Position numbers and translations under genes: made by a program. From NCBI GenBank assembly GCA_964495695.1, contig CAZBWR010000011.1:1032-65031 (forward strand): a stretch of DNA of 64,000 nt, given 5' to 3'. The DNA is from an uncultured Chitinophagales bacterium. Lineage in GTDB: Bacteria > Bacteroidota > Ignavibacteria > UBA10030 > UBA6906. This document shows positions 1 through 58,793 of the stretch, in pieces (the first letter of the stretch is position 1; each line of letters begins with the position of its first letter). The notes under the pieces were generated by a model. It ran no database searches, was not told where the DNA came from, and worked only from the letters and a program-made list of their open reading frames with translations.

Positions 1-768
1 GATCCGAGAGGTAATCTTGTTTGGGAGTTCGCTCGGATTGTCAAAGAAATCAAACCGAAGGCTTTCTTATTCGAAAATGTCGCCGGTCTTAAGACAATTC
101 ACAATGGCCAACTTTATCAGGAGTTGTTAGAAGACTTAAGTCTGAATGGTATGTACACGGTTTCTGATCATCTCTATCAGTTTGCAGAATATGGCATACC
201 TCAATTCAGACAGCGCATTTTCTTCATAGGGCATAAAGATGGTAAGCGTATTCCTCCAATGCTGCCAACACATGGAGACGATAGCCTCTTCTATGACCGA
301 CCGTTTGTGACCGTAGAAAAGGTTCTTGCGGACTTGCCAAAGCCAGGGGTCAACTCTGGACTAGCTAATCATGTCGGCCGAGAACATAGTGAAGCGATAA
401 TGACCAGATACAAGGACCTGCGGTTTGGTGAACGTGACTCTCGCACAAGGATCAATAAGCTAGATCCCAATAGGCCAAGTTTCACAATCGTTGTTGGATC
501 CGATGCCGGTGGAGGGAAGGGGCACGTCCACCCTTATGTTCCGCGAGAGGTTACACCTCGCGAATCTGCCCGCATTCAAACTTTCCCCGATTGGTGGGAA
601 TTTAGTGGAACGGGCCGCCATGTGATTCGGCAAGTCGGAAATGCTGTCCCCGTGCTTTTTGGGGCTATTTTCGGAGAATATCTCTTGAAATACCTATTTA
701 ATAAAAGGAAGAGACGATCATATGACGAGCTGGTCGGGATCATTGATCTGCATTTCTTGGCCAAATGA
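1..768 (+). CDS. DNA (cytosine-5)-methyltransferase, 5'-truncated by the window edge
   Basis: Frame is open from base 1 (DPRGNLVWEFARIVKEIKPKAFLFENVAGL). C5-MTase motifs VI (ENV), VIII (QFRQRIFFIG), IX (RESARIQTFPD) and X (QVGNAVP). AT-rich relative to the rest of the window. Confidence 0.93.
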   Translation, partial: DPRGNLVWEFARIVKEIKPKAFLFENVAGLKTIHNGQLYQELLEDLSLNGMYTVSDHLYQFAEYGIPQFRQRIFFIGHKDGKRIPPMLPTHGDDSLFYDRPFVTVEKVLADLPKPGVNSGLANHVGREHSEAIMTRYKDLRFGERDSRTRINKLDPNRPSFTIVVGSDAGGGKGHVHPYVPREVTPRESARIQTFPDWWEFSGTGRHVIRQVGNAVPVLFGAIFGEYLLKYLFNKRKRRSYDELVGIIDLHFLAK

Positions 769-2261
769 TCACGGATCTTTTTAGCCACAAAATTCACTCG
801 AGTGGTGCAGATTGGGAGGATAAGCTCATCGAGCTGGCATTCCTTTTTTCAGAATTCGACGGCCAAGTTTACAATAGAAAAAAAATTGAAGATAGGTTAA
901 CTCGGATTAGCCCTAGATCAGTTTATGTTGCAAGAGATCGTTCAAAGTTTCGAGATGAATATAGTGCATACCCCGCATATTTCGGGTTATATCACTTAAG
1001 GAAATCGGAGCATGGTTGGGTTGTCCAAATCAGTGAAACTACTAAGCGATGTTTGCTAAGAGAAGAACCTGACGTAGCGGCATTTCTTAGACTTCAGCTT
1101 TCTCTCTTTCAGTATCCGAATGGTATGGGGGCCGTATACAAGCCAGGAACTAACCACCTACGCTTGCAAGCAAACACCCGTAGACGAATGTTAGGCTTAA
1201 TCAAAAACAATATCCGTCTATCCCCTTTACGCCTTATAACGCGCGCTTTGATAGCGGATGCCTCACTCAGAGAAATGCCACTTTTTAAGGCAACAATTTC
1301 ATACAGTGAGATTTTCGCTTTAGCAAACACACAGAATATAAATTCCCTTGCGAGCCCACCCATTAATGACATCGCTAATAGTTTAACGAAGATCAGGCGA
1401 AATGAAATTAAGGGCCCCAGCCATTTCGAAAGCAGGTTCCACCTCTTGAAGCATCTCGACTTATTTAAAGTTGGCAAAAATGCCTTAGGTTTTCGCGATT
1501 ATGTTGATGAAGATGACAAGAAGGACATTGAGGCAAAGATTCTCGCGATTAAAGGCATATCAGCTTTTTTCGAAAAATTTGAAGGCGTGACTGATGGCTC
1601 CGAACTCGAAGAGCTAATCGGACATGGTTATTGGCCAGATTATTTCGATGGCGTAATGACCTTGCCTCCGGACGTGGTTTCTGTGCTCTTTTCTGATGCA
1701 GCAATTGGTGGATCAACGAAAAGGGAGCAAACTCAAATTCCCCCTCCACCACTACCGCTCCCGACTTTTCCGCTAAAGGAAAGAGAACCTCTGTTGCCAT
1801 TACCCAAGAGATCCGATAGAGTGGTCGATTCAGCGGATCCAGAGGTTACGCGCATAAAGCGCCAAAGAAGGAATCTAGCGCACAAAACGCTCTTAGATAC
1901 ACTAGATGATTTCCTGCGCACTAAGGGTGCTACACCATTGCAAAATCCTCATATAGACCTGTACGCCGCAATCCCCAATGATGGTTCATTCATATTCGAA
2001 GTAAAAAGTGGTGGCGAAAATCTACTCGATCAAATTCGTAAAGGTATTAGCCAACTTTATGAGTATCGTTTCAGGTACAGGGAGAACATTCCTAAAGAAG
2101 TGAAATTATGTCTCGTCCTTCCTGCTTCTCCGGATCAAATCCCTTGGCTGTCAGAATATTTGTGTGTTGATAGGGGGATTTGCATGTGCTGGTTCGACAA
2201 CGATGGGAGAATTAGAGTTCCTGTTCATTGTTCGGAGGATATGGCCCCGTTAGTGAATTAA
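765..2261 (+). CDS. Putative restriction endonuclease: large N-terminal domain, Pro-rich linker, C-terminal PD-(D/E)xK nuclease
   Basis: ATGA overlap with the MTase stop. C-terminal HIDL...FEVKS...ISQLYEY fits a PD-(D/E)xK/QxxxY nuclease core. Same low GC as the MTase. Confidence 0.7.
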   Translation: MITDLFSHKIHSSGADWEDKLIELAFLFSEFDGQVYNRKKIEDRLTRISPRSVYVARDRSKFRDEYSAYPAYFGLYHLRKSEHGWVVQISETTKRCLLREEPDVAAFLRLQLSLFQYPNGMGAVYKPGTNHLRLQANTRRRMLGLIKNNIRLSPLRLITRALIADASLREMPLFKATISYSEIFALANTQNINSLASPPINDIANSLTKIRRNEIKGPSHFESRFHLLKHLDLFKVGKNALGFRDYVDEDDKKDIEAKILAIKGISAFFEKFEGVTDGSELEELIGHGYWPDYFDGVMTLPPDVVSVLFSDAAIGGSTKREQTQIPPPPLPLPTFPLKEREPLLPLPKRSDRVVDSADPEVTRIKRQRRNLAHKTLLDTLDDFLRTKGATPLQNPHIDLYAAIPNDGSFIFEVKSGGENLLDQIRKGISQLYEYRFRYRENIPKEVKLCLVLPASPDQIPWLSEYLCVDRGICMCWFDNDGRIRVPVHCSEDMAPLVN

Positions 2262-7075: not shown

Positions 7076-8326
7076 TTGTCCGCTGAAGTGTCACTCACAC
7101 TCTACATATTCGAAGATCCCGCCTACGTCAAGCTCTATCCGCTGGCGTATACACGACCCGTTTATGACATGCGCTGCGGGATGCTCACGCTGCGTGAGAA
7201 GATTGTGCGTGCCTACCCGCGTGCCCGGACAGTGCTTCTCTGTCGTCCATATTTGGCGGATGTCATGAGGGAGCAGAACCCGAAGCTCCCCGTCAATGAA
7301 TTCGCCGGAGGAGACAGTCTCTTTATTAACGGAAGAGTCCTGGTTGATGCCGCATTCCGGAAGGCTGTGCCGCCGACCGGGAGGGATACCATCTATCTGT
7401 CGGGCGGTATAATCGTCGCGGTGCGGATGCACGCAACGGAGGATCATTCTGGCCGTTTTGTGGACGGGTTTGATGTCGAACAGTTCGAGCATTGCGCAAA
7501 AGAGGAGATCCAGGCGCGGCTTGTTTCGTACCCGTGGGATCTCGTCCATCTGAACGGAGAAGAGTTACTGAAAGACAATGCAGCTCTTCCAGGAAAGAAA
7601 CCGCCGCTCTCTCCCGCTAAGTACGCCGGCGTTCATTTTGTCAATAAGAAAGCGATCCGGCTCGGCAGAGATGTTGTCATCAAGCCGGGAGTTGTCCTCG
7701 ATGCAGAGAACGGTCCGATCGTCATTGACAAAGGAACGAAAGTGCTTGCCAATGCAGTGATCGAGGGACCTGTGTATATCGGTGCCGGCTCGACCATCAA
7801 AGCGGGAGCGAAGATTTATGGCAACACTTCAATAGGACCTGTCTGCAAGGTCGGGGGCGAAGTGGAAGGAAGCATCATCCATTCATACTCAAACAAACAG
7901 CATGACGGCTTTCTCGGGCACTCGTATGTTGGTATGTGGTGCAACCTTGGTGCCGACACGAATACGAGTGATCTGAAAAACAACTACAGCACAGTGCAGG
8001 CCTACTGCAACGGAACAATGATAGACACCGGACAGCAATTCCTCGGCTTGACGATGGGGGATCACTCGAAGAGCAGCATCAACACGATGTTCAACACCGG
8101 CACTGTTGTGGGTGTGTCGTCGAATGTGTTCGGAGAAGGGTTCCCGCCAAAACACGTGCCATCATTTTCGTGGGGTGGAAGTGGTGGTTTGACGAGCTAC
8201 GTGCCTGAGAAGGCGATTGAAGTGGCCCGGCTAGTTATGGCAAGGAGGTCTGTGAGAATGACAGCTGCTGATGCAGAATTAATGCTGAGGATCTTTGAGC
8301 TCACGCGGGAAGAGCGTGGAGCTTAG
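7076..8326 (+). CDS. Alternative GlmU-type sugar nucleotidyltransferase/acetyltransferase (Bacteroidota/Chlorobi type)
   Basis: LYPLAYTRPVYDMRCGMLTLREK N-terminus, hexapeptide repeats, NKQHDGFLGHSYVGMWCNLGADT. Start uncertain (TTG 7076 or GTG 7088). Confidence 0.85.
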   Translation: MSAEVSLTLYIFEDPAYVKLYPLAYTRPVYDMRCGMLTLREKIVRAYPRARTVLLCRPYLADVMREQNPKLPVNEFAGGDSLFINGRVLVDAAFRKAVPPTGRDTIYLSGGIIVAVRMHATEDHSGRFVDGFDVEQFEHCAKEEIQARLVSYPWDLVHLNGEELLKDNAALPGKKPPLSPAKYAGVHFVNKKAIRLGRDVVIKPGVVLDAENGPIVIDKGTKVLANAVIEGPVYIGAGSTIKAGAKIYGNTSIGPVCKVGGEVEGSIIHSYSNKQHDGFLGHSYVGMWCNLGADTNTSDLKNNYSTVQAYCNGTMIDTGQQFLGLTMGDHSKSSINTMFNTGTVVGVSSNVFGEGFPPKHVPSFSWGGSGGLTSYVPEKAIEVARLVMARRSVRMTAADAELMLRIFELTREERGA

Positions 8327-9259: not shown

Positions 9260-9579
9260 GAGCTTCTCCCGACTCGTTTCGGGTGATCTGGCGGACGGTT
9301 GCCCGCATCCCGAGGGGAAAGGTCGCTTCGTACGGCGATGTAGCGCGGGCCAGCAATCTTCCCGGACGGGCTCGGCTTGTCGGCTACGCCCTCCGCGGTC
9401 TTCCTCCCGGCATGGAGATTCCGTGGCATCGCGTCATCAATTCGCAGGGAAGAATCTCCTTTCCACCCCGCTCGTCCCCGTACAACCGCCAAAGAGAAAT
9501 GTTGGTGAGTGAAGGAATCGTATTCAAGAATGGCAAGGTCGATATGAAACAATTCGGCTGGAAAAGGTATCGAAGATGA
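9256..9579 (+). CDS. atl: Alkyltransferase-like protein (ATL/YbaZ, O6-alkylguanine binding)
   Basis: IPRGKVASYGDVA, ARLVG, and PWHRV (Trp replaces the MGMT active Cys). ATGA overlap with cdd. Confidence 0.92.
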   Translation: MRASPDSFRVIWRTVARIPRGKVASYGDVARASNLPGRARLVGYALRGLPPGMEIPWHRVINSQGRISFPPRSSPYNRQREMLVSEGIVFKNGKVDMKQFGWKRYRR

Positions 9580-10523
9580 ACCGGACGGACAGACTGCTGG
9601 CAATTATCCTCGAGTTGCAGAGAAAGAAGGTGGTGCGCGCCGGGGATCTTGCTGCGACGTTTGAAGTGACAAAGCGCAGTATCTACAGGGATATTCAGGC
9701 GATCAGTGAAGCCGGAGTTCCTCTGGTCGCTGTCCCCGGTCGTGGGTATTCGATCATGGAGGGGTACTTCCTGCCTCCGCTCAGCTTTTCACAGGATGAA
9801 GCAATGATGTTGATTCTCGGGGCTGAGTTTGTCGGGACGAGGTTCGACTCCCAATACCGGAAAGCCGCAACAGAGGCTCGCGGAAAGATTGAGGCAGTGC
9901 TACGTCCCTCACTTCGAGCTGAGGTGGATTCGTTGCGTGAGAACATCCAGTTTGTTTCGTTCGAGTCCGGGCAATCCGCCACATTGATTGAGCATCTGCG
10001 ACTCGTGAGAACGGCGATCATAGAAAAACGCTCGATCACATTCAAGTATCAAAAGCGTTGGAGTACGAAAGAAAAGGAACCGAAGACCCGCACCGTGGAT
10101 CCGTACGCGCTGCTTCATCTCGGATCCAATTGGATGCTTGCGGGGTATTGTCATCTCCGACATGATATTCGCAGTTTCAGGCTGAACCGGATGACCGGAT
10201 TGATTATGACAAATCGATCTTTCGAACGAAAGCGTAACTTCAAACTTGCTCAGCTCGCCGAGGATCGTGACCTGAATTTCAATGCCAGAGTACATCTTGC
10301 ATCGGGTGCTGCACGATGGCTCGACGAATCACTTCCCTACAAGGTTGTTGGTAGGGAGAAACGGCGCGACGGTGTTGTTCTGCGCATCGCCACTTCTAAA
10401 GAAGAACAACTTGTGGCCTGGATCCGCAGCTGGGGCCCGGAAGCGACGGTGCTGGAACCTTCCTCGTTGCGTCAACGCCTTAAAGATGAGGCGCAAAGCG
10501 CTCTTCAACGGTACACAGATTAA
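9576..10523 (+). CDS. YafY-family HTH-WYL-WCX transcriptional regulator
   Basis: MNRTDRLLAI, FEVTKRSIYRDI HTH, RTVDPYAL..GSNWMLAGYCHLRHDIRSFRLNR WYL domain, WIRSWG..A.VLEP.SLR WCX tail. ATGA overlap with atl. Confidence 0.95.
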   Translation: MNRTDRLLAIILELQRKKVVRAGDLAATFEVTKRSIYRDIQAISEAGVPLVAVPGRGYSIMEGYFLPPLSFSQDEAMMLILGAEFVGTRFDSQYRKAATEARGKIEAVLRPSLRAEVDSLRENIQFVSFESGQSATLIEHLRLVRTAIIEKRSITFKYQKRWSTKEKEPKTRTVDPYALLHLGSNWMLAGYCHLRHDIRSFRLNRMTGLIMTNRSFERKRNFKLAQLAEDRDLNFNARVHLASGAARWLDESLPYKVVGREKRRDGVVLRIATSKEEQLVAWIRSWGPEATVLEPSSLRQRLKDEAQSALQRYTD

Positions 10524-19959: not shown

Positions 19960-20880
19960 ATGAGCACACAAAAGGCACTTTCCGAACAGCTTGCAACGCT
20001 GATGACCGAGCAACGAAATCCGGTCTCTCGCGAGATAGATCTCGAGTCTACCGATGGCATACTTCGAATAATAAACTCGGAGGACAAGAAGGTGGCGCTT
20101 GCCGTCGAGAAAGAGATCCCTTATATCACACAGGCCGTCGACATCATTGTCGACTCTTTCAAGAAGGGAGGGCGCCTTCTTTACTTCGGGGCAGGGACCA
20201 GCGGCAGGCTTGGAGTCGTGGACGCGTCCGAGTGTCCCCCCACGTTCGGCACACCGCAGGGGATGGTGTCAGGGTTCATAGCCGGAGGTGAGGCCGCAAT
20301 GTTCAAGGCACAGGAAGGTGCCGAGGATAATCGGGAGCTTGCCCGCAATGATGTCGATGCGCAGAGCGTCGGACCGAATGACACCGTTTGCGGGATCGCC
20401 GCGAGCCGCAGGACTCCTTACGTTGTTGCAGCCGTGGAAAGAGCGAAAGAACGGGGAGCCAGGACACTCTACGTCACGACAAACCCGAGGGCAACCTTCG
20501 ATCTTGACGTCGATGTCGCCATCTGTCCCGAGGTCGGCCCTGAAGTGATTATGGGATCTACCCGGATGAAATCAGGCACAGCGCAAAAACTTGTGCTCAA
20601 CATGCTTACGACTGCCGCGATGGTCAAGCTCGGAAAGGTCTACGAGAACATGATGGTTGACCTCCAACTCACCAACGCGAAGCTGGTCGAGCGATCAAAA
20701 CGCATCATCATGATGGTGACGGGTGTTGAGTATGAAGTCGCCGCAGAATATCTCGAGAAATCGGGCGGACACGTGAAAACGGCGATTGTCATGGTTGCCA
20801 ACGGCATGACCCGTGACGAAGCAAAACAGTGTGTCGAGCGATCAAACGGCTTTGTCCGCGTGGCAATAGGAAAGAACTAG
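19960..20880 (+). CDS. murQ: N-acetylmuramic acid 6-phosphate etherase
   Basis: TEQRNP, GAGTSGRLG, DASECPPTFG, EGAED, GPEVIMGSTRMKSGTAQK. Confidence 0.97.
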   Translation: MSTQKALSEQLATLMTEQRNPVSREIDLESTDGILRIINSEDKKVALAVEKEIPYITQAVDIIVDSFKKGGRLLYFGAGTSGRLGVVDASECPPTFGTPQGMVSGFIAGGEAAMFKAQEGAEDNRELARNDVDAQSVGPNDTVCGIAASRRTPYVVAAVERAKERGARTLYVTTNPRATFDLDVDVAICPEVGPEVIMGSTRMKSGTAQKLVLNMLTTAAMVKLGKVYENMMVDLQLTNAKLVERSKRIIMMVTGVEYEVAAEYLEKSGGHVKTAIVMVANGMTRDEAKQCVERSNGFVRVAIGKN

Positions 20881-35186: not shown

Positions 35187-36302
35187 ATGATGGCCGCACG
35201 GCCGTTACGTGTGATCTTTGCGGGGGGCGGAACCGGTGGGCATTTGTTCCCGGCGCTGGCTATAGCCGATGAGATTCGTAGCAGATACCCGGATGCTGCA
35301 ATCACGTTCATCGGAACGAAAACCAAAATCGAAGCAAGGGTCGTTCCCCGACGCGGATACAGCTTCGAGGCGATCTGGATAAGCGGTATCAGGCGGTCAC
35401 TCTCGATCAGCAATCTGTTGTTTCCGGTGAAGCTGGTTGTGGCGTTGATGCAGGCGCTCTTGATCATGAAACGCCTGAAGCCTGAGGTCGTGGTCGGAAC
35501 CGGAGGGTACGTGTGCGGGCCTCCGCTCTATGTTGCGACGTGGCTCGGTATTCCGACGCTGATCCAGGAACAGAACAGTTATCCCGGTGCAACAACCCGG
35601 GCGTTGGCAGGGAAAGTCGACGAAGTGCATATCTCCTTTGAAGCTTCCCGCAAGTGGCTTAAAGGAGGAAACGTCAAGCTCAGCGGTAATCCCACGGGGA
35701 GACTGCTCGGCACAGTAGACAGAAATATGGGGATATCATTCTTCTCGCTTGACGAGAAGAGGCCCGTTCTGCTGGTGTTCGGCGGAAGCCTCGGGGCAGC
35801 GTCGATCAATACTGCTTTGGAGAATGCACTGCCGGAAATAGTCCGACGGGGGATCCAGGTTATCTGGCAGACAGGGACATCGGATTATGAACGATTGGAA
35901 ATGAGAGTGTCAGGGAAAAGCGAAGTGGAAAAAAGCGTCCGCATTACGAAGTTCATAGACACGATGGAACATGCATACGCTGCAGCAAATCTGGCAGTCT
36001 GCCGTGCCGGCGCAAGCACGCTTGCAGAATTGGCGGTGTGCGGCGTACCGGCGGTGCTTGTTCCGTATCCGCATGCGGCAGCGGATCATCAGACTGTCAA
36101 CGCGCGGACGCTTGTTGAACAAGGGGCTGCCGTGATGATACCGGACAGAGATATTCGAGATCGCCTCCTTCCGGTTGTGAGCGGGTTGTTGGAAAACAAA
36201 GAGGAACTCGCTTCGATGTCGATGCGTGCGCGCAGCCTTGCAAAACCCGACGCCGCATCAACTCTGGCCGATGCAGTCGTGAGAATCGCAGGAGTATCAT
36301 GA
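35187..36302 (+). CDS. murG: Lipid II GlcNAc transferase
   Basis: GGGTGGHLFP, GTGGYV, EQNSYPG, GGSLGA, RAGAST, HQTVNA. Confidence 0.98.
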   Translation: MMAARPLRVIFAGGGTGGHLFPALAIADEIRSRYPDAAITFIGTKTKIEARVVPRRGYSFEAIWISGIRRSLSISNLLFPVKLVVALMQALLIMKRLKPEVVVGTGGYVCGPPLYVATWLGIPTLIQEQNSYPGATTRALAGKVDEVHISFEASRKWLKGGNVKLSGNPTGRLLGTVDRNMGISFFSLDEKRPVLLVFGGSLGAASINTALENALPEIVRRGIQVIWQTGTSDYERLEMRVSGKSEVEKSVRITKFIDTMEHAYAAANLAVCRAGASTLAELAVCGVPAVLVPYPHAAADHQTVNARTLVEQGAAVMIPDRDIRDRLLPVVSGLLENKEELASMSMRARSLAKPDAASTLADAVVRIAGVS

Positions 36303-36811
36303 TGACAGAAGCATACGACAGGACGTTCAAATACAAGCTGGACTTCTACTATCAATCGGCGTTGATCTATCTCGTGACACTTGTCCTGTACGGCGGCATC
36401 AAGGGCAGTTTCGTCGAGAAGGAATTCATCTACGTCATGAATGACCCGATCCTCTATGTTATCATTTTCTTTGTGGTGATATCGTTCGGGGCGCTTATTC
36501 TCAATCGTATCCGGAACCGCCGTCTGATCATCGGGGACGATGAGTTGACGTTCAAGACACGATTCCGCGAGAGGGTCATCAAAGTGTCAGACATAGAATG
36601 GATGCACATCGGGCGGGAGACACGCGTCAGGACGAGCGGACGTTTCCAGGTGATCATTTACAAGCTCAAGGGTAAGAGGAGGCTGTTTCGTATACGCGTG
36701 GGACGGTACGAGAGGGATAAAGAATTGATTGTCGAAATGGAGCGCATTGCGCAACGGGTACCGAAGAGGAAGCGCTCCCGGTGGCGTCGTCGCAACTTTA
36801 CTGATCGTTAA
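36299..36811 (+). CDS. Hypothetical membrane protein (2 TM helices plus a beta-rich, basic cytoplasmic domain) inside the dcw cluster
   Basis: Overlaps the murG stop and fills the murG-murC gap. Two hydrophobic segments. Confidence 0.8.
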   Translation: MMTEAYDRTFKYKLDFYYQSALIYLVTLVLYGGIKGSFVEKEFIYVMNDPILYVIIFFVVISFGALILNRIRNRRLIIGDDELTFKTRFRERVIKVSDIEWMHIGRETRVRTSGRFQVIIYKLKGKRRLFRIRVGRYERDKELIVEMERIAQRVPKRKRSRWRRRNFTDR

Positions 36812-36827
36812 GGAACAGAATCATTTA

Positions 36828-38216
36828 ATGTTTTCATCAATCCGGAAATTACATTTTGTCGGCATCGGGGGTATCGGCATGAGCGGCATCGCCGAGATCC
36901 TGATCGACCAGGGCTTCACGATCACCGGTTCGGACAAAGCCGAGAGCGATAACACGGAGCGCATAGCCTCCCTCGGGGCAAAAGTGTTTATCGGCCATAG
37001 TGCCTCGAACCTTGATCCTGACGTCGATGTGTTGGTCTACTCATCGGCGCTGTCGCTTGACAATCCGGAGATTGTGGAGGCGCTCAACAGAAAAATCCCC
37101 GTTATCCGCAGGGCCGAGATGCTTGCCGAAGTCATGAGGCTGAAATACGGCATCGGTATAGCTGGAACGCACGGCAAAACAACCACGACATCGATGGTCA
37201 GTCTTGTGTTGATGGAAGGCAACGTCGACCCGACCGTGATTGTAGGCGGACGCCTGCGAGGACTTGCCGGCTCGAATGCGCGCTTGGGCAAGGGGGACTT
37301 CATCGTCGTTGAGGCTGATGAGTATGACCGGTCCTTCCTTTCTATCACACCAACGATTGCGGTGTTGACAACTCTGGAGACCGATCATCTTGATTGCTAC
37401 CGCGACCTGGAGGATATCAAGTCTGCCTTTATCCAGTTTGCGTCAAAGGTCCCGTTCTACGGCTTTGTGGTTCTCTGTCTCGACGAGCCCGAGTTGCAGA
37501 ACATCATGCCGAAGATCAAGAAGAAGATCATAACGTATGGATTGAACGGCCAGGCGGATCTGCAGGCTGTTGACATCCGCCACAAGGAACACACAACATC
37601 CTTCATGGTGCTGCGCGATGGCAAAGAGCTTGGCGAGGTGGTCTTGCAGATTCCGGGGAAACACAATGTGCAGAATGCCCTTGCGGCGATAGCCGTCGGG
37701 CTGGAGCTTGGTGTTCCGTTCGAGAAGGCAAAGACCGGCATTGGAAAATTCAGCGGGGTCTTCAGGCGTTGGGATGTAAAGGCTGAGGTCAATGACATTA
37801 TGGTGGTGGACGACTATGCACATCATCCGACAGAAATTGCGGTGACGTTGGCTGGTGTGAAAGCGGGGTGGCGCCGTCGTGTTGTGTGCGTGTTTCAGCC
37901 CCACCTCTATTCGCGGACAAGGGACTTCTACGAAGAGTTCGGGCGTTCGTTCTTCAACGCCGATATGCTTGTGATAACGGATGTGTACCCGGCAAGGGAA
38001 GAACCTATACAGGGAATAACGGGCGAGCTCATCGCAAACACTGCGCGGGAATTCGGCCACAAGAACGTCCACTATGTTGAAAACAAGAAAGAGGTTCCCT
38101 CGTTCCTCAAGCAGAATATGCAGCCGGGGGATATCATCATAACGATGGGCGCGGGGGACATATGGCGATACGGCGAGGAGTTTATCAAACAACTACAACA
38201 AACATCCTCTAGATAA
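36828..38216 (+). CDS. murC: UDP-MurNAc--L-Ala ligase
   Basis: HFVGIGGIGMSGIA, AGTHGKTTTT, EADEYD, DDYAHHPTE, FQPHLYSRT. Confidence 0.98.
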   Translation: MFSSIRKLHFVGIGGIGMSGIAEILIDQGFTITGSDKAESDNTERIASLGAKVFIGHSASNLDPDVDVLVYSSALSLDNPEIVEALNRKIPVIRRAEMLAEVMRLKYGIGIAGTHGKTTTTSMVSLVLMEGNVDPTVIVGGRLRGLAGSNARLGKGDFIVVEADEYDRSFLSITPTIAVLTTLETDHLDCYRDLEDIKSAFIQFASKVPFYGFVVLCLDEPELQNIMPKIKKKIITYGLNGQADLQAVDIRHKEHTTSFMVLRDGKELGEVVLQIPGKHNVQNALAAIAVGLELGVPFEKAKTGIGKFSGVFRRWDVKAEVNDIMVVDDYAHHPTEIAVTLAGVKAGWRRRVVCVFQPHLYSRTRDFYEEFGRSFFNADMLVITDVYPAREEPIQGITGELIANTAREFGHKNVHYVENKKEVPSFLKQNMQPGDIIITMGAGDIWRYGEEFIKQLQQTSSR

Positions 38217-38217
38217 C

Positions 38218-38742
38218 ATGATTTTGCTGAGTGAGATTCAGTCGTTCTTCAGAGGTTCAATCAGATTGGGTGAAGCACTTTCACGTTACACCACAATGCG
38301 GATCGGCGGGCCGGCTGACTATCTTCTGACTCCTGCGGATGATCAGGAACAAGAAACACTCATCCGCTATCTCGAACGGACCGGGTTCCCCCATTTCATT
38401 CTTCAGCCGGAAATGCTTGCAAGCGATGACGGGTTCCGTGGAGTGATCATCAATCCCCCAGGTGGTGCGTCAGCTTCGGGGGAACGCCGGTTGGAGATGT
38501 TCGAGCCGGTCGCAGAGGCTTCGGTTGAGGAACTGGTGAATCGTGTGCAGTTGAACGGTCGCACGTGGGGCGACACGGAAATAGACGGCGCTTACATCCG
38601 GAACACCGGGTACGCGCGCGCTTCGGATGTGCTCACGCTTGTACAGCACGCACAACGCACGATACTCCGTTCAACAGGTGTGCACCTTGACATAAAATTT
38701 CCTCGTGTTGGATTCAATCAAAGAATAACGCAGGTAGTGTAA
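38218..38742 (+). CDS. Internally deleted, catalytically degenerate MurB-like protein (174 aa)
   Basis: EALSRYTTMRIGGPADY and ARASDVLTL...TGVHL match the MurB N- and C-termini. GxGSN, GIPG/MNAG and the central region are absent. Confidence 0.8.
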   Translation: MILLSEIQSFFRGSIRLGEALSRYTTMRIGGPADYLLTPADDQEQETLIRYLERTGFPHFILQPEMLASDDGFRGVIINPPGGASASGERRLEMFEPVAEASVEELVNRVQLNGRTWGDTEIDGAYIRNTGYARASDVLTLVQHAQRTILRSTGVHLDIKFPRVGFNQRITQVV

Positions 38743-38743
38743 G

Positions 38744-39517
38744 ATGGCGGCGGTACAGGAAGAGAGCAAACAGGGCAAAAGCCACAAGCTTCAGTATGCG
38801 TTGATGACGTTGCTCGTCTGCGTCCTGACGGGAATGGCCTTTTACGCGAACAAGTGGAAGGAGGATCGTCGTGTATCGCAGGTGATGGTCGACAACAACC
38901 GGCTCGTACAGACGAAAGACATTCTCGCGCTTGCTGCCATTCCGCCGGACAGCAAGTTGTTCGATCTGGATTTGTATGCGATTGAACAGCGGCTACTCAA
39001 GAATCCGTTCATTCGCTCGGTTGGCGTTCACCGCGATCTGCCGAACAGAATACGGCTTTCCATTACGGAACGGGTGCCTGTCGCTGCGATTCTTGCGGAT
39101 GGCATGAAGTACGTTGATGACGAAGGATTCGTCCTTCCTCCGATACGTTCACAGCACATTTTTGATTTGCCCGTCTTGACAGGGACCATTCCGGCAAATG
39201 ACCTTGTGCAAGGAAAAAGAACCGGGAATAATATGATTCATGAAGCACTTGCGTTTCTTCGACTCGCGCAGGAAGTGAATCGTGATCTTTACAGCAACAT
39301 CTCAGAGGTTCGGCTCGCATCCGGCGGCGACCTGCTGTTCTATACGGCGGAGTTCGGTATCCCCGTCATCCTCGCTAAAGAGAATCTCGGGGCGCGGTTG
39401 GTAACATTCGAAGGATTCTGGAAGGAGATAGTTGTGCGCGAAGGTGCGCACAGGCTTCAGTATATTGATTTACGTTTTCAGGACAAGGTTGTGGTTCGCT
39501 GGTCACAGGCATCATAG
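38744..39517 (+). CDS. ftsQ: Cell division protein FtsQ/DivIB
   Basis: TM helix, POTRA domain (LPNRIRLSITERVP), C-terminal IDLRF. Position before ftsA. Confidence 0.92.
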   Translation: MAAVQEESKQGKSHKLQYALMTLLVCVLTGMAFYANKWKEDRRVSQVMVDNNRLVQTKDILALAAIPPDSKLFDLDLYAIEQRLLKNPFIRSVGVHRDLPNRIRLSITERVPVAAILADGMKYVDDEGFVLPPIRSQHIFDLPVLTGTIPANDLVQGKRTGNNMIHEALAFLRLAQEVNRDLYSNISEVRLASGGDLLFYTAEFGIPVILAKENLGARLVTFEGFWKEIVVREGAHRLQYIDLRFQDKVVVRWSQAS

Positions 39518-43101: not shown

Positions 43102-44657
43102 TATTTTTTCACTGTCACTTTGAATGAGTCCGTAAACTGCTGGAGAACAGTCTTCAGTCTGGCAGTGATATCATCTGTCAGGTCTTTCTTCTCGGAGATC
43201 TGAGTGAGAAGATCGGCATGTTTCATTTCCAGCATTTCAAGCAACTCGTGCTCGTAGCGACCGACGTGCTCGACGGGAATTTCGTCAAGGTAGCCGTTTG
43301 TTCCCGCGTAGATCGACACAACCTGCTTCTCGACGGTCATCGGGACATACTGCCCCTGCTTCAGCAACTCCACGAGGCGAGCCCCGCGGCGTAACTGCTG
43401 GAGTGTTGCCTTGTCGAGGTCGGAGCCGAACTTTGCGAAGGCTTCGAGTTCACGATACTGTGCAAGTTCCAGGCGGAGACGTCCGGCGACCTTTTTCATC
43501 GCCTTGATCTGGGCGTTGCCGCCGACGCGGGACACCGAGATACCGACGTTGATCGCAGGCCGGATACCCGCGTTGAACATACTTGCTTCGAGATAGATCT
43601 GTCCGTCAGTGATCGAGATGACGTTTGTAGGGATATACGCAGAAACGTCACCTGCCTGCGTTTCAATGACCGGGAGAGCCGTAAGGCTTCCGCCGCCAAG
43701 CTGATCGTTGAGCTTTGATGCGCGCTCGAGCAGGCGCGAATGCAAATAGAACACATCCCCGGGGTATGCTTCACGTCCGGGAGGCCGGCGAAGGAGAAGA
43801 GAAACCTGGCGGTATGCCTGCGCTTGCTTTGTCAGATCGTCATACACAACAAGGGCATGGCGTCCACTGTCGCGGAAGAACTCACCGAGCGTCGCGCCGG
43901 AGTACGGAGAGACAAATTGCATCGGTGCCGGATCGGTCGCAGTGGCTGCAATAACCGTTGTGTAGGCCATTGCGCCTTCCTGCTCGAGCTTGTCAACAAC
44001 CTGGGCTACGGTGGAGCTCTTCTGGCCGATGGCAACGTAGATGCAGTACACCGGCTTTACCCCTTCTTTCTTCGCCTTCTCGGTGTGCGTATGCTTCTGG
44101 TTGATAATGGTGTCAATGGCGATTGCCGTTTTACCGGTTTGCCGGTCGCCGATGATCAACTCGCGCTGTCCGCGGCCGATAGGAATCATGCCATCTACCG
44201 CCTTGAGGCCCGTTTGCAAGGGCTCTTTCACCGGAGCGCGGGCCACAACGCCGAGTGCCTTCCGTTCAATCGGGAGGATTTTCTCGGTTTTAATAGGGCC
44301 GCGGCCGTCGATGGGCTGGCCAAGTGCGTTGATGACGCGGCCCAGCATGCTTTCGCCGACGGGAATTGAGGCAACGCGTCCCGTGCGTTTCACGGTGTCG
44401 CCTTCCTTGATTTCGCTGCTTTCGCCAAACAGGATGCATCCGACATTGTCTTCTTCGAGATTGAGGACCATGCCGAACACGCCGTGCGGGAATTCGATGA
44501 GCTCGCTCATCACAGCCTTTGAGAGGCCGTAGACGCGTGCAACACCGTCACCGATCTGAAGCACGGTTCCAACATCATAGACATCCGTCTCCTTCTCGAA
44601 TCCTGCAAGCTGCTTGCGGAGTATCGCCGAGACTTCGTCCGGTCTAACTTCTGCCAT
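43101..44657 (-). CDS. atpA: ATP synthase alpha subunit
   Basis: [24 protein letters not shown]. Confidence 0.99.
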
Positions 44658-44700
44658 AACGTATGCCTTCGTAATTCTTTGTGAGTTTCAAACCAGGGTT

Positions 44701-45252
44701 TTAGTTCAATGCGTGTCCGTGTGTGAACCGCTCGCGCATCACCTCAAGCTGGTGCTTCACGCTTGCATCAAGCACCGTGTCGCCTATCCTGACCAGCAAT
44801 CCTCCCTGCAGCGCTTTGTCCTGCGAAAACCGTATACGCACTTTCTTCTTCGTGAATTGCTCCAGTCTGGATGCGAGACTCTCCTGCTGCTGCTTGGTGA
44901 TCTCGACAGCCGACGAGACGTCAACGTTCACAATGCCATACTTCTCGTCACGCAGGGCAAGGAAACGGTCTACAATCGCAGGCAGCGCCTGTTCGCGCCC
45001 CTTGTATGTGACCATCTCAATGAACTCCATAGTTGCCTTGCCAATCGTTTTGCCGAAGAGTTCACGAAACACCTGAATCTTCTTTTCGGCCGGCACTATA
45101 GGGCTGTTGACAAACTGCTTGAATGTGCGCTCGGTATCAAAGAGACGCTTGATGGTTTCCAGGTCCCCGGCGAGCTGGTCGATTGCCTTGGTCGATTCCG
45201 CCGTCATCATCAGCGCCTTTGCATAGCGGCGTCCCACGCGAGTGTTCTTCAT
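44701..45252 (-). CDS. atpH: ATP synthase delta subunit
   Basis: RRYAKAL, GGLLVRIGDTVLDASV. Confidence 0.96.
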   Translation of the reverse strand: MKNTRVGRRYAKALMMTAESTKAIDQLAGDLETIKRLFDTERTFKQFVNSPIVPAEKKIQVFRELFGKTIGKATMEFIEMVTYKGREQALPAIVDRFLALRDEKYGIVNVDVSSAVEITKQQQESLASRLEQFTKKKVRIRFSQDKALQGGLLVRIGDTVLDASVKHQLEVMRERFTHGHALN

Positions 45253-45257
45253 GAGGC

Positions 45258-45743
45258 TCAGCTCGCTCTGATGTCTTTGATGACCGTGTCCACCAACTGG
45301 CGGTGCTTGTTGACGTCGAGGTTCGCGTCGATGATCTTGCCGGCGGCAAGGACTGCGAGATCCGCCACCTCGCCGCGCAGTTGTTGCAATGCGGCATCCT
45401 TCTCACGGCGGATTTCATCCTTTGCCTGCTCGATCATGGTACGCGAGGTGGCGCTTGCCTTGTCGAGGATTTCCGCTTTCAGCTTTTCGCCCATTTCTCG
45501 CCCTTCACGGATCGCCTGCTGTGCGTGCGCCTCGGCTTGTGCAAGCTGCCGTTTGTTTTCCTCGAGCAACTTCTTCGCTTCGGCTTGTGCTTCCTCCGCT
45601 TGCTGTAACGCCGTGCGGATTTGCTCTTCACGCGAAGTGAGTGCGTGCGTCAAGGGCTTCCAGGCAAATTTGCCGAGCGCCGCCATCGTGAGGAGGAACG
45701 TCACGATCGTCCAAAAGATCAAGCCCGTGTTGAGTTCTAACAT
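45258..45743 (-). CDS. atpF: ATP synthase subunit b
   Basis: GLIFWTI TM helix, KFAWKP, long coiled coil. Confidence 0.96.
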   Translation of the reverse strand: MLELNTGLIFWTIVTFLLTMAALGKFAWKPLTHALTSREEQIRTALQQAEEAQAEAKKLLEENKRQLAQAEAHAQQAIREGREMGEKLKAEILDKASATSRTMIEQAKDEIRREKDAALQQLRGEVADLAVLAAGKIIDANLDVNKHRQLVDTVIKDIRAS

Positions 45744-45768
45744 GGTTGTTCCTTTACGTGGGAGTCTG

Positions 45769-45996
45769 TTACTTCAATGCGAGAAGGATGCAGATAACGA
45801 GCGAAAAGAAGGTTGCGCCTTCGATAAGGGCTGCCGCAATAATCATCGATGTACGGATTGCGCCCGCTGCCTCCGGCTGACGTCCGCTTGCTTCCATTGC
45901 CGCCGCTGCAAGCTTGCCGATGCCGAGTCCCGCCCCGATGATCGTGATGGCTGCTCCGAGACCTGCTGCGAGATATGCCCAACCTAATGCTTCCAT
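45769..45996 (-). CDS. atpE: ATP synthase subunit c
   Basis: GAGLGIG, RQPE, ALIEG (proton-binding Glu). Confidence 0.98.
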   Translation of the reverse strand: MEALGWAYLAAGLGAAITIIGAGLGIGKLAAAAMEASGRQPEAAGAIRTSMIIAAALIEGATFFSLVICILLALK

Positions 45997-56200: not shown

Positions 56201-56213
56201 TGATTTATTGAAG

Positions 56214-58793
56214 ATGACAGCCACACGAACATTTATCGTCATTGCCGCGTTGCTATTCCCTTTCGCAGGCGGATGTGAGCGGGACATGACGCTGGAGCGG
56301 GAACGCGCTGCGGAAGTATTTGAACGAGCAAAGGACGCTATCCAGCGAAATGACCATCAGGACAGCCGCCGCCTCTTGCTGGAAGTGGCACGTCTTGACA
56401 ACAAACTCGGAAACCGGGCGCGACTTGCCGAAACGCTTGTTCTGCTCTCGGAGAATTACACTGCAGGTGGACGTTTCGATTCGGCCGCCCAGCTCGCTTC
56501 GGAGGCGCAGGCACTGTACGCGAGGCTTGGTGACAAGCCGGGTGTTCGGACGGCTGTGCTCGCCCTTGCGCGTGTGCACGAACTGTGCGGTGAGGCGGAG
56601 GAAGCGTATGCGCTTCTGCTTGGCGCATTGCAGGTTGAAGAGGCTCTTGGTAACCGCTTTGCGGCCCAGGAGTTGAAGTGGAAGATCATTCCCGTTGCGC
56701 GGAGTGCGGGTAATCCGGAGGCGGAGCGCCGGTATCTGAAGCAACTCATCGCGGAATACTCCTCTTCGGGCGACCGGATGAAGCAAGCGCGTGCGATCTA
56801 TGAACTGGGTGTTTCGTTTCTTTCTGCAAACCAGATACAATCGGCACGCAAACATTTCGGTGATGCCCGCGTACTTGCGCAGACCGGTTCTGACACTCTT
56901 CTCGTTATAGAAATCATGCAGATGCAGGGAGTGACCGCGCGGAGAGAGGGGAATGTCTCTCAATCATTGCGTCATTATTCAGAGGCAATGCGCCTGTCGG
57001 ACGCTACGCGGGGTGCCCAACGCGTTCGCGAAGAGCTGTTGCTGCGCGCCGGTAATCTTCTACTCGAACAGCAGCGGTATGCGGATGCAATAAAGTACTA
57101 CAACGTGGCACTGAGGTCGGCGATCCGGACCCAGCACAGACTCGTTGAGGCATACGCATTGCTTCAACTCGGCCATTGCAGTTCCGGCTTGAATAGCGAC
57201 AACGCTCGGAAGGAATACGAGGCAGGCGCAGAGTTGATGGCGCATATCGGCATTCCGGCAGCCAACGCGTACGCCGCCGCCTGTCTGGGACGTCATGCCT
57301 TGGCAAGTGGTCAGCCGTCGCGTGCTTTGGAGTACTTCCAACAGGCTGTGGAGGCGTTTGATTCGTCCCTCTCTGCCTGGGGACCGCTTGATGTGTTTAC
57401 CGAATGCGAGGAGACCCTTTTCGGCGAGGACAAATCAACGCCGTACGATGATCTTGTCGGGATGTATCTCCAACTCGGCAAGGCGGAAGATGCCTTCCTT
57501 GCGGCCGGGCGGAACAATCGGACAGATTTGCTTCGGAACATCAGCCGTTTGAGGATTCGATTGCGCAGCGCATCAGCAACGGCCGGGCTTGCAAGCTACC
57601 GAAAACTACTCGGCATGTACGGAGGTGTCGAACGCCAACTCGCCGTTGCCTTTTCGGAGCGTGCTGAATCCATTCCACTGACTGCAGAGTTACGACAATC
57701 TCTTCGCACGACGCGCATGCGTCTGCGAGACAAAGGGGATTCCCTCGTGGTTACGCTCAAGGCGTTCCGGGAGATTCTTGCACCATCCCACCCGACTCTT
57801 GCGGAGATTCAGCAAAAGATTCCTATTGATGCTGTTCTGATTGCGTATCATCCAGGCCCGCGTTCGCTCCACATCTTTACCGTCTCCCGAAACAGTTTTA
57901 GCAGTGATATCGGGGCTGTCGGGCGGGAAGCCCTGCAGACGATGATTGGCTCGCATCTCGCCAATCTGCAACGGCTGGCTAAGGTCGAAGCAGATATCCC
58001 GCAAAAGGACAAGAATGAACTGGCCGAGCAGACGATCAAATTGTATGCGGCGATGTTACTTCCCGCTGAGCATCATATCCGTGAGACGGGAAGATTGATC
58101 GTTATGCTGCCGGCAGATATGCCGCTCGTTCCCCTGCATATCCTTTCAAGGGACAAACTTTCCGGTCCGGTCTTGGAGAAGCATGCTGTCAGATACATTT
58201 CAGATGCGGGCATGCTGGCAGGGTCCGGGAAGCGCGTTGGTGCATCTCCAACGGGAGTGGCGTTTGGCAACAGAGGCGCTACAGCTTGGGATGTTGATTA
58301 CGAGTTGAGTGATGTGCGGATCTTTGTCAAAGAATCCCGGTTCTACATTGACAACCTTGCGATGGTTTCGGCGTTACGCAATGCGGAGGGGGATGTGTTG
58401 CACGCAGTACTGGATATCCGGAGCAATTGGAGGCATCCCTACCGGTCGTATTTCATTCTGAATAGCGGTCCCGGATATGCATCGTTGCAGTATCGCCGCT
58501 TCGGAGAACTCTTTTCAATGGCTCCGTTTCCCAACATCATTCTTTCCAATATTTCCGAGGTCCAGCTTCACCCCATTGTGCCGCGGATCTTCCACATCAA
58601 CGGTACGTCCGACATTGTGTTGAATTGCTTTGTTCCCTCACGCAAAGCGAAGAAGCAGTTTGCAGAATTGTATTATTCTCTGCTTCTATCGGGAAACCCG
58701 GTTGAACAGTCCGTCAGGCAGGCGGCGTTGATGATGCGGCAGAATCCGGAGTTTGCCGATCCCCGTGCATGGGGGGCATTCATGGTGTGGTAA
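56214..58793 (+). CDS. Lipoprotein with TPR repeats and a C-terminal CHAT domain, catalytic dyad degenerate
   Basis: Lipobox FAGGC and helical repeats. CHAT landmarks LAEIQQKI..., LLPA...RLIVM...LVPLHIL, DPRAWGAF. HxxxHG reads HAVLDI and LSAC reads LSNI. Confidence 0.8.
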   Translation: MTATRTFIVIAALLFPFAGGCERDMTLERERAAEVFERAKDAIQRNDHQDSRRLLLEVARLDNKLGNRARLAETLVLLSENYTAGGRFDSAAQLASEAQALYARLGDKPGVRTAVLALARVHELCGEAEEAYALLLGALQVEEALGNRFAAQELKWKIIPVARSAGNPEAERRYLKQLIAEYSSSGDRMKQARAIYELGVSFLSANQIQSARKHFGDARVLAQTGSDTLLVIEIMQMQGVTARREGNVSQSLRHYSEAMRLSDATRGAQRVREELLLRAGNLLLEQQRYADAIKYYNVALRSAIRTQHRLVEAYALLQLGHCSSGLNSDNARKEYEAGAELMAHIGIPAANAYAAACLGRHALASGQPSRALEYFQQAVEAFDSSLSAWGPLDVFTECEETLFGEDKSTPYDDLVGMYLQLGKAEDAFLAAGRNNRTDLLRNISRLRIRLRSASATAGLASYRKLLGMYGGVERQLAVAFSERAESIPLTAELRQSLRTTRMRLRDKGDSLVVTLKAFREILAPSHPTLAEIQQKIPIDAVLIAYHPGPRSLHIFTVSRNSFSSDIGAVGREALQTMIGSHLANLQRLAKVEADIPQKDKNELAEQTIKLYAAMLLPAEHHIRETGRLIVMLPADMPLVPLHILSRDKLSGPVLEKHAVRYISDAGMLAGSGKRVGASPTGVAFGNRGATAWDVDYELSDVRIFVKESRFYIDNLAMVSALRNAEGDVLHAVLDIRSNWRHPYRSYFILNSGPGYASLQYRRFGELFSMAPFPNIILSNISEVQLHPIVPRIFHINGTSDIVLNCFVPSRKAKKQFAELYYSLLLSGNPVEQSVRQAALMMRQNPEFADPRAWGAFMVW

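Follow-up and report, generated by a model that had tools for sequence, protein, structure and literature searches.

To our knowledge, MurB is regarded as a universally essential enzyme with a single function, and as an antibiotic target. The dcw cluster analysed here, in which the murB slot is occupied by an intact gene for a 174-aa protein lacking the FAD domain and the catalytic residues, raises the question of what this protein, termed mini-MurB, is and why it has been kept. The searchable literature yielded no account of a MurB that is truncated or dead.

The window, that is, the whole 64,000-nucleotide stretch of DNA that was analysed, contains a complete dcw cluster comprising mraZ, mraW, a small ORF, ftsI, murE, murF, mraY, murD, ftsW, murG, an unnamed gene (unk170), murC, the mini-MurB gene, ftsQ, ftsA and ftsZ. 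An ATP synthase operon lies after the cluster on the opposite strand. The mini-MurB reading frame runs from an ATG at 38218 to a TAA at 38740-38742 with no internal stops. As an earlier note on this DNA had described, it is packed 1 nt from both murC, which ends at 38216, and ftsQ, whose ATG is at 38744; mini-MurB and MurC are separate ORFs across this 1-nt spacer and not a fusion (Table 1). The longest murC ORF begins at a TTG at 36729 and extends to 38216 (+), overlapping unk170 by 83 nt, and the start conserved in relatives is the ATG at 36828. A promoter and terminator scan around the mini-MurB gene gave no signal above the shuffled background.

Table 1. Features of the mini-MurB gene and its neighbours, in window coordinates.
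Feature	Position	Strand	Description
Mini-MurB ORF	38218..38742	+	174 aa plus stop; MurB-derived, without FAD domain and catalytic residues
Domain 1 remnant, aa 1-79	38218..38454	+	PRK13905 match at aa 10-79; pLDDT 82-95; residues in common with catalytic clade I copies
QPE, aa 63-65	38404..38412	+	Where GxGSN, the FAD pyrophosphate loop, would lie; abolished by substitutions and a 2-aa deletion
Linker, aa 80-91	38455..38490	+	Short, variable, 12 aa; stands in for about 126 aa of MurB; pLDDT 74 (block 81-90)
Domain 3 remnant (MurB_C), aa 92-168	38491..38721	+	Pfam MurB_C at aa 101-158 (sub-gathering score); TIGR00179
Glu93, ex-catalytic Ser position	38494-38496	+	Alignment with full-length relatives
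Lys160, ex-catalytic Glu position	38695-38697	+	Alignment with full-length relatives
C-terminal tail, aa 169-174	38722..38739	+	Predicted disordered (pLDDT <50); ends V-(V/A)
murC	36828..38216	+	462 aa from conserved ATG; stop 1 nt upstream of mini-MurB start
ftsQ	38744..39517	+	257 aa; start 1 nt downstream of mini-MurB stop
unk170	36299..36811	+	Between murG and murC; conserved; hydrophobic N-terminal half; no family match

Elsewhere in the window, an ORF covering the C-terminal portion of a C-5 cytosine DNA methylase (124..768, +) precedes an ORF of 498 aa for which no family matched (765..2261, +), and the two may form a restriction-modification pair. The window also encodes a transcription regulator with HTH, WYL and WCX domains (9576..10523, +) and a protein of 861 aa that combines TPR and CHAT domains (56208..58793, +); both architectures are often tied to defence or signalling systems. 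A 457-aa ORF without family match (44614..45987, +) is antisense to genes that are called in relatives as ATP synthase delta, b and c, and is almost certainly spurious.

Profile matches connect mini-MurB to MurB at both of its ends. The NCBIfam model PRK13905 aligns aa 10-79 with profile positions 11-82 of 303 (E 4.4e-17), bearing out the MurB-like N-terminus proposed in the earlier note, and TIGR00179 aligns aa 103-158 with positions 225-283 of 290 (E 5.4e-10). The Pfam model for the C-terminal domain (PF02873, MurB_C) gives 24.2 bits for the protein of the window, just under the gathering score of 27, and 46.8-63.4 bits for other short forms. By these profile scores, the homology of mini-MurB to MurB is far beyond chance. 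The equivalog cut-offs are nevertheless missed by far (NF010480, 61.9 bits vs 259; TIGR00179, 39 vs 144.5), and a profile search with FAD_binding_4 (PF01565) returned no match in mini-MurB. The domain 1 remnant retains GGPADY as well as the conserved N-terminal sequence M-I-x-L-x-E-I-Q-S-F-F-R-G-S-I.

When mini-MurB was aligned with the nearest full-length relatives, three in-frame lesions became visible, namely deletions of 2, about 126 and 3 aa. The 2-aa deletion turns GRGSN into QPE, in agreement with the earlier reading that the GxGSN loop for FAD had been excised. The large deletion corresponds to domain 2 of MurB and removes GIPG, MNAGA and YRxS, which holds the catalytic Arg; that a middle part with GIPG/MNAG and the Arg is missing had been seen correctly, although its size, then put at 140-150 aa, comes to about 126-131 aa (305 to 174 aa). 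The 3-aa deletion converts (E)KHANF into GAY, GS(I)F has become LEMF (catalytic Ser to Glu) and LELEI has become LDIKF (catalytic Glu to Lys), so that the reported changes of GSVF to LEMF, the loss of KHANF and the LDIKF at the C-terminal Glu site are all visible in the alignment. Neither the ex-catalytic Ser position nor the ex-catalytic Glu position is constant across the 11 species whose short form is described below. Judged by these residues, mini-MurB should be unable to bind FAD in the manner of MurB or to reduce enolpyruvyl-UDP-GlcNAc, because domain 2, the GxGSN loop and the Arg, Ser and Glu positions are absent or unconserved. Against the definition of a MurB reductase (EC 1.3.1.98), the FAD motifs, the catalytic residues and the equivalog score are lacking, whereas the fold of the C-terminal domain and the orthologous dcw position are present. 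Column statistics show that the short forms keep the glycines and hydrophobic residues common to catalytic MurB and have lost essentially all active-site and ligand positions. Only six conserved positions are specific to them (L48, F73, V142, H144, Q146, V173), and no new functional motif stands out, since their conserved residues are almost all fold residues of canonical MurB.

An exhaustive profile search together with a word-indexed search yielded 18 distinct short forms of 174-200 aa, which sit in the murC-x-ftsQ slot in every context examined. They include, besides the protein of the window, two 174-aa orthologues (71% and 66% identical), which recur with unchanged synteny and 1-nt spacers in over 15 contigs, each assembled independently. 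The earlier note had asked that misassembly be excluded; as independent assemblies of many samples contain the short form, in more than 20 contigs altogether, an assembly collapse is excluded.

The clade around the window was collected with unk170 as a synteny marker, taking one genome per GTDB species, which gave 143 confirmed loci. The best 80 of these 143 were kept, all of them Ignavibacteriota MAGs under various NCBI labels, and together with the window and two further loci (L001 and L005) they form the set of 83 loci in which the murC-ftsQ slot was classified. The slot holds a full-length protein in 31 loci and a mini-MurB in 11, is empty in 30, and is undeterminable in 11, at contig ends. 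A slot was counted as empty where murC abuts ftsQ and no MurB-like sequence lies within 10 kb on either side; the spacers range from -4 to 52 nt where the start codon could be placed. The 30 empty-slot loci fall among L021-L035, L041, L045-L047, L050-L053, L059-L061, L064, L067, L070-L075 and L081, and some of them lie on contigs of 1.6-3.75 Mb.

The marker is a family in its own right. Proteins of the unk170 family have 164-170 aa with an Arg/Lys-rich C-terminus, are found in 143 Ignavibacteriota species genomes and are highly conserved, at an omega of 0.04-0.06, without any Pfam or NCBIfam match. The homologues examined are L001, L005, L011, L015, L018 and L021-L100, and unk170 has the appearance of a dcw gene that is specific to this phylum and so far undescribed. 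In one of these loci (L011, 2444..3816, in GCA_964627485.1), murC is split into two overlapping calls of 288 and 184 aa, followed by a full-length murB that is intact; a frameshift or an error of assembly in this MAG is the probable cause of the split.

Neighbour-joining trees built from two or three proteins (MurC and FtsA; MurC, MurG and MurD) separate clade I from clade II in 100 of 100 bootstraps. Clade I, the outgroup, with an Ignavibacterium album MAG among its members, has the complete set of FAD and catalytic motifs in 28 of 28 slot proteins, while no slot protein of clade II has them intact. Within clade II, the monophyletic subclade IIa (100/100 bootstraps) consists of exactly the 11 species with the 174-180 aa form, the window among them, so that the conservation of the short form in relatives, which the earlier note had proposed to check, holds in the same slot throughout IIa. 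The rest of clade II is a grade, IIb, with the 30 empty-slot species and, scattered among them, six species with a degenerate full-length protein, in which SNKSN stands for GRGSN and MNRRS for MNAGA, for example. Such degenerate full-length slot proteins (L072, L078, L086, L036, L030 and L079; P0017-P0024, P0173, P0193, P0198, P0200 and P0204) are 296-329 aa long with intact reading frames, and may form another class of MurB pseudoenzyme, one that has been trimmed less.

A 200-aa form (P0049, P0170) also occupies the slot, in a lineage inside IIb that is sister to IIa in 0 of 100 bootstraps. It is without the 2-aa and 3-aa deletions, and its deletion boundaries differ from those of the IIa proteins. 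Since this form lies inside IIb, is never sister to IIa and has other boundaries, domain 2 was excised at least twice independently, and both excisions preserved domains 1 and 3. The slot gene was catalytically dispensable at the base of the larger clade, because full-length sisters have decayed and 30 sister species have deleted the gene. The gene was released from catalytic constraint at the base of clade II or close to it, and its later fate was several deletions in IIb and one trimming followed by retention in IIa. The earlier note's picture of a clean in-frame loss of exactly the functional motifs is right as to the frame but not as to a single clean excision, for the motifs of the full-length sisters decay as well. 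It had also allowed that full-length relatives in this slot, with dN/dS near 1, would point to simple decay; the catalytic full-length copies belong to a different, intact clade, and they are no evidence of recent decay.

Mini-MurB is under purifying selection and is kept in every sampled IIa species. Among three 174-aa lineages no indel has occurred at 63-67% nucleotide identity (dN 0.19-0.28; neighbouring genes dS 1.2-3.5); synonymous sites are saturated in these comparisons, and dN/dS was therefore taken from the closest pair of species available (L037/L038). In this pair mini-MurB has a dN of 0.137, a dS of 1.03 and an omega of 0.13, below 1 as the earlier note had anticipated for a selected protein. 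The values for ftsQ, murG, murC and ftsA in the same pair are 0.155, 0.164, 0.046 and 0.023. Catalytic clade I murB shows an omega of 0.035-0.053, about a third of that of mini-MurB, and the degenerate full-length copies one of 0.22-0.36. Mini-MurB thus combines the loss of catalytic residues with the purifying selection and cross-species conservation by which pseudoenzymes are recognized.

The protein is also predicted to fold. An AlphaFold2 model based on an alignment of 18 short forms has a mean pLDDT of 89.8 and a pTM of 0.82, with the last six residues alone disordered. Domain 3 is the best conserved part (pLDDT 93-97). A Foldseek search of the PDB placed MurB structures in all of the top 15 matches (including 3tx1, 4pyt and 1hsk), and the superposition on 3tx1 reaches a query-normalised TM score of 0.80. 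On this superposition, at a TM of about 0.8, domains 1 and 3 would keep their native mutual arrangement. The model points to a confident, compact fold made of domain 1, a 12-aa linker and domain 3, at a pLDDT of about 90; AlphaFold was among the checks that the earlier note had suggested. The 200-aa form (P0170) is predicted with the same two domains and a longer disordered linker (AlphaFold2 pLDDT 85.2).

These results lead us to give a probability of roughly 0.6 to the reading that mini-MurB is a pseudoenzyme remnant of the dcw murB, catalytically unneeded since the clade II ancestor, which has kept a non-catalytic job. The earlier suggestion of a small, folded, non-enzymatic protein under selection accords with the conserved relatives, the omega of about 0.13 and the AlphaFold2 fold. 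That the short gene is an artefact of assembly or gene calling, from a collapsed or chimeric contig, is refuted by ORFs of 174-180 aa with the same synteny in independent NCBI, JGI and Logan assemblies and in long-read MAG contigs. A more serious rival is that mini-MurB is a functionless relic on its way out, with the ORF kept since its loss would disturb the coupling or stoichiometry of murC and ftsQ. Repeated gene loss in sister lineages and the relaxation of selection relative to catalytic murB would fit such a relic, and where murB lies within the dcw cluster reportedly matters for growth and sporulation in B. subtilis, in work attributed to Real and Henriques in 2006, which would lend the idea some weight. 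We consider it unlikely, however, given that omega is 0.13 and not near 1, that the hydrophobic core and the glycines are conserved in a confidently predicted fold, and that the ORF is kept in 11 of 11 IIa species despite saturated synonymous sites (dS >1.3) in neighbouring genes. The independent second excision of domain 2 also retained the same two domains. Because empty-slot species couple murC directly to ftsQ, at the spacers given above, a spacer ORF is not needed, and this direct coupling together with selection on the amino-acid sequence makes a purely cis role as a coupling spacer unlikely.

Two other explanations would leave mini-MurB with more of its ancestral chemistry. Domain 3 is the substrate-binding domain in MurB, and the protein could be a ligand sensor in which this domain still binds a UDP-sugar (UDP-MurNAc or enolpyruvyl-UDP-GlcNAc) and regulates MurC, MurA or the real reductase. 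The strong conservation and confident prediction of domain 3, its MurB_C scores of 46-63 bits in relatives and the existence of regulatory pseudoenzymes in peptidoglycan precursor synthesis, such as CwlM acting on MurA, are in line with a sensor; yet the positions that contact the substrate in MurB (GSxFKNP, KHANF, the Lys/Arg of LKGKR and the C-terminal Glu) are unconserved among the short forms, and most of the binding cleft needs domain 2 and FAD, both absent, which makes this role rather improbable. Far less probable is that mini-MurB remains an active enzyme, be it as one half of a split MurB with the FAD domain supplied in trans or with a different cofactor. The native mutual orientation of domains 1 and 3 in the model could speak for a split enzyme, but the Ser and Glu positions vary freely, the Arg lay in the deleted segment, and no ORF resembling MurB domain 2 occurs in the window or in any retrieved locus. 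As the candidate for the FAD half, unk170 was rejected: it has no family match and a hydrophobic N-terminal half, and it is also present in catalytic clade I.

Retention of a dead MurB across the clade means that UDP-MurNAc is made in some other way. At least 47 species-level lineages of clade II with a mini, degenerate or empty murB slot are represented among the retrieved loci. A second murB is absent from the 64-kb window, and from the 10 kb on either side in the best 80 of 143 related loci. The default expectation is a second murB elsewhere in the genome, and a non-orthologous enzyme or salvage is a possible source. A murB located outside the dcw cluster and adjoining sua5 (P0006-type) was considered as a relocated active clade II gene, and no link to clade II could be established. 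Its loci have nothing in common with the window except the MurB match itself, and no clade II contig was recognised among the best 120 relatives listed, which is not evidence that the gene is absent. The best-sampled relative of this type (P0289) proved to be an ordinary slot murB in a lineage without unk170.

Two other genes of the window bear on the precursor pathway. A MurNAc-6-phosphate etherase, MurQ, is encoded a short way upstream of the dcw cluster, its gene flanked by rsmG and mfd (19960..20880, +; TIGR00274, 378 bits vs a cut-off of 302) and indicates MurNAc or muropeptide recycling or catabolism; MurQ does not itself yield UDP-MurNAc. An alternative bacterial GlmU (7076..8326, +; TIGR03991, 439 bits) is also present, and UDP-GlcNAc is probably made de novo. 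It is conceivable, though doubtful, that clade II is without any functional MurB homologue and obtains UDP-MurNAc through a non-orthologous reductase or salvage, with the IIa mini-MurB docking the replacement activity or its product onto MurC at the division site.

Within our preferred reading, that of a pseudoenzyme with a retained non-catalytic job, the ancestral MurB would have had a second, structural role, and IIa would have kept that role alone. UDP-MurNAc would be supplied by an enzyme encoded elsewhere, most simply by a second murB. Mini-MurB could then act as an accessory subunit or adaptor, docking onto MurC or onto the product of another gene of the cluster (FtsQ, FtsA, MurG or unk170); we hold such a role towards MurC or another cluster protein with modest confidence, by inference from the surrounding observations. 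Docking might use ancestral surfaces, namely the conserved N-terminus, domain 3 and the disordered GF-x7-VA tail. The slot MurBs of the phylum, catalytic or not, have an unusually conserved N-terminus in common, and they share the C-terminal extension GF-x7-VA, which typical MurBs are without. As this tail is disordered in the model, it resembles a short docking motif. The product of MurB is the substrate of MurC, and the gene spacing points to translational coupling of the mini-MurB gene to murC in 11 of 11 IIa species, in which both spacers measure -4 to +8 nt. Close relatives can do without whatever function the remnant has, as is seen from the 30 IIb sister species that have deleted the slot gene.

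A conserved and selected mini-MurB would be the first pseudoenzyme derived from the MurB step. It points to a non-catalytic role of domains 1 and 3, perhaps hidden in active MurB as well, such as docking in a Mur complex; the existence of a Mur enzyme complex is still debated. The dead, trimmed or missing dcw murB across this Ignavibacteriota clade amounts to a natural experiment on MurB replacement, with three outcomes side by side, in which the slot gene has been kept at full length but degenerate, trimmed and retained, or deleted altogether. The excision of domain 2 on two independent occasions offers clean constructs for testing a non-catalytic role. The appeal of mini-MurB is tempered by the likely mundane source of the missing activity, and if the replacement is an ordinary second murB, the clade would still provide a well-resolved case of enzyme-gene decay.

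Among known systems, the closest is canonical MurB of the short form (L. monocytogenes 3TX1, S. aureus 1HSK; TIGR00179, PF01565 and PF02873), to which mini-MurB is homologous, with domains 1 and 3 superposing at the TM of 0.80, and which fills this position between murC and ftsQ in the Ignavibacteriota of clade I. Canonical MurB has about 305 aa with domain 2, the FAD loops and the Arg, Ser and Glu residues, whereas mini-MurB has 174 aa without these. The degenerate full-length slot MurB resembles mini-MurB in its slot, its place in clade II, its lost motifs and its retained GF-x7-VA tail, but it retains a decayed domain 2 and evolves faster (omega 0.22-0.36 vs 0.13). Other cell-wall pseudoenzymes are CwlM, which activates MurA, and the LytM-type proteins EnvC and NlpD, which activate amidases. 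Like mini-MurB, they are homologues of cell-wall enzymes without catalysis, and they have been retained as regulators or adaptors; their folds are unrelated to that of mini-MurB, and their partners are experimentally established. Natural MurC-MurB fusion proteins exist (PMC10214165), as in Verrucomicrobia, and were also seen among the retrieved proteins (P0129, P0141). In these fusions a complete and presumably active MurB is part of a single polypeptide, whereas here the ORFs are separate and the MurB part is dead. The order of MurC then MurB is the same in both, and by analogy with the fusions hints that MurC and MurB may operate next to each other.
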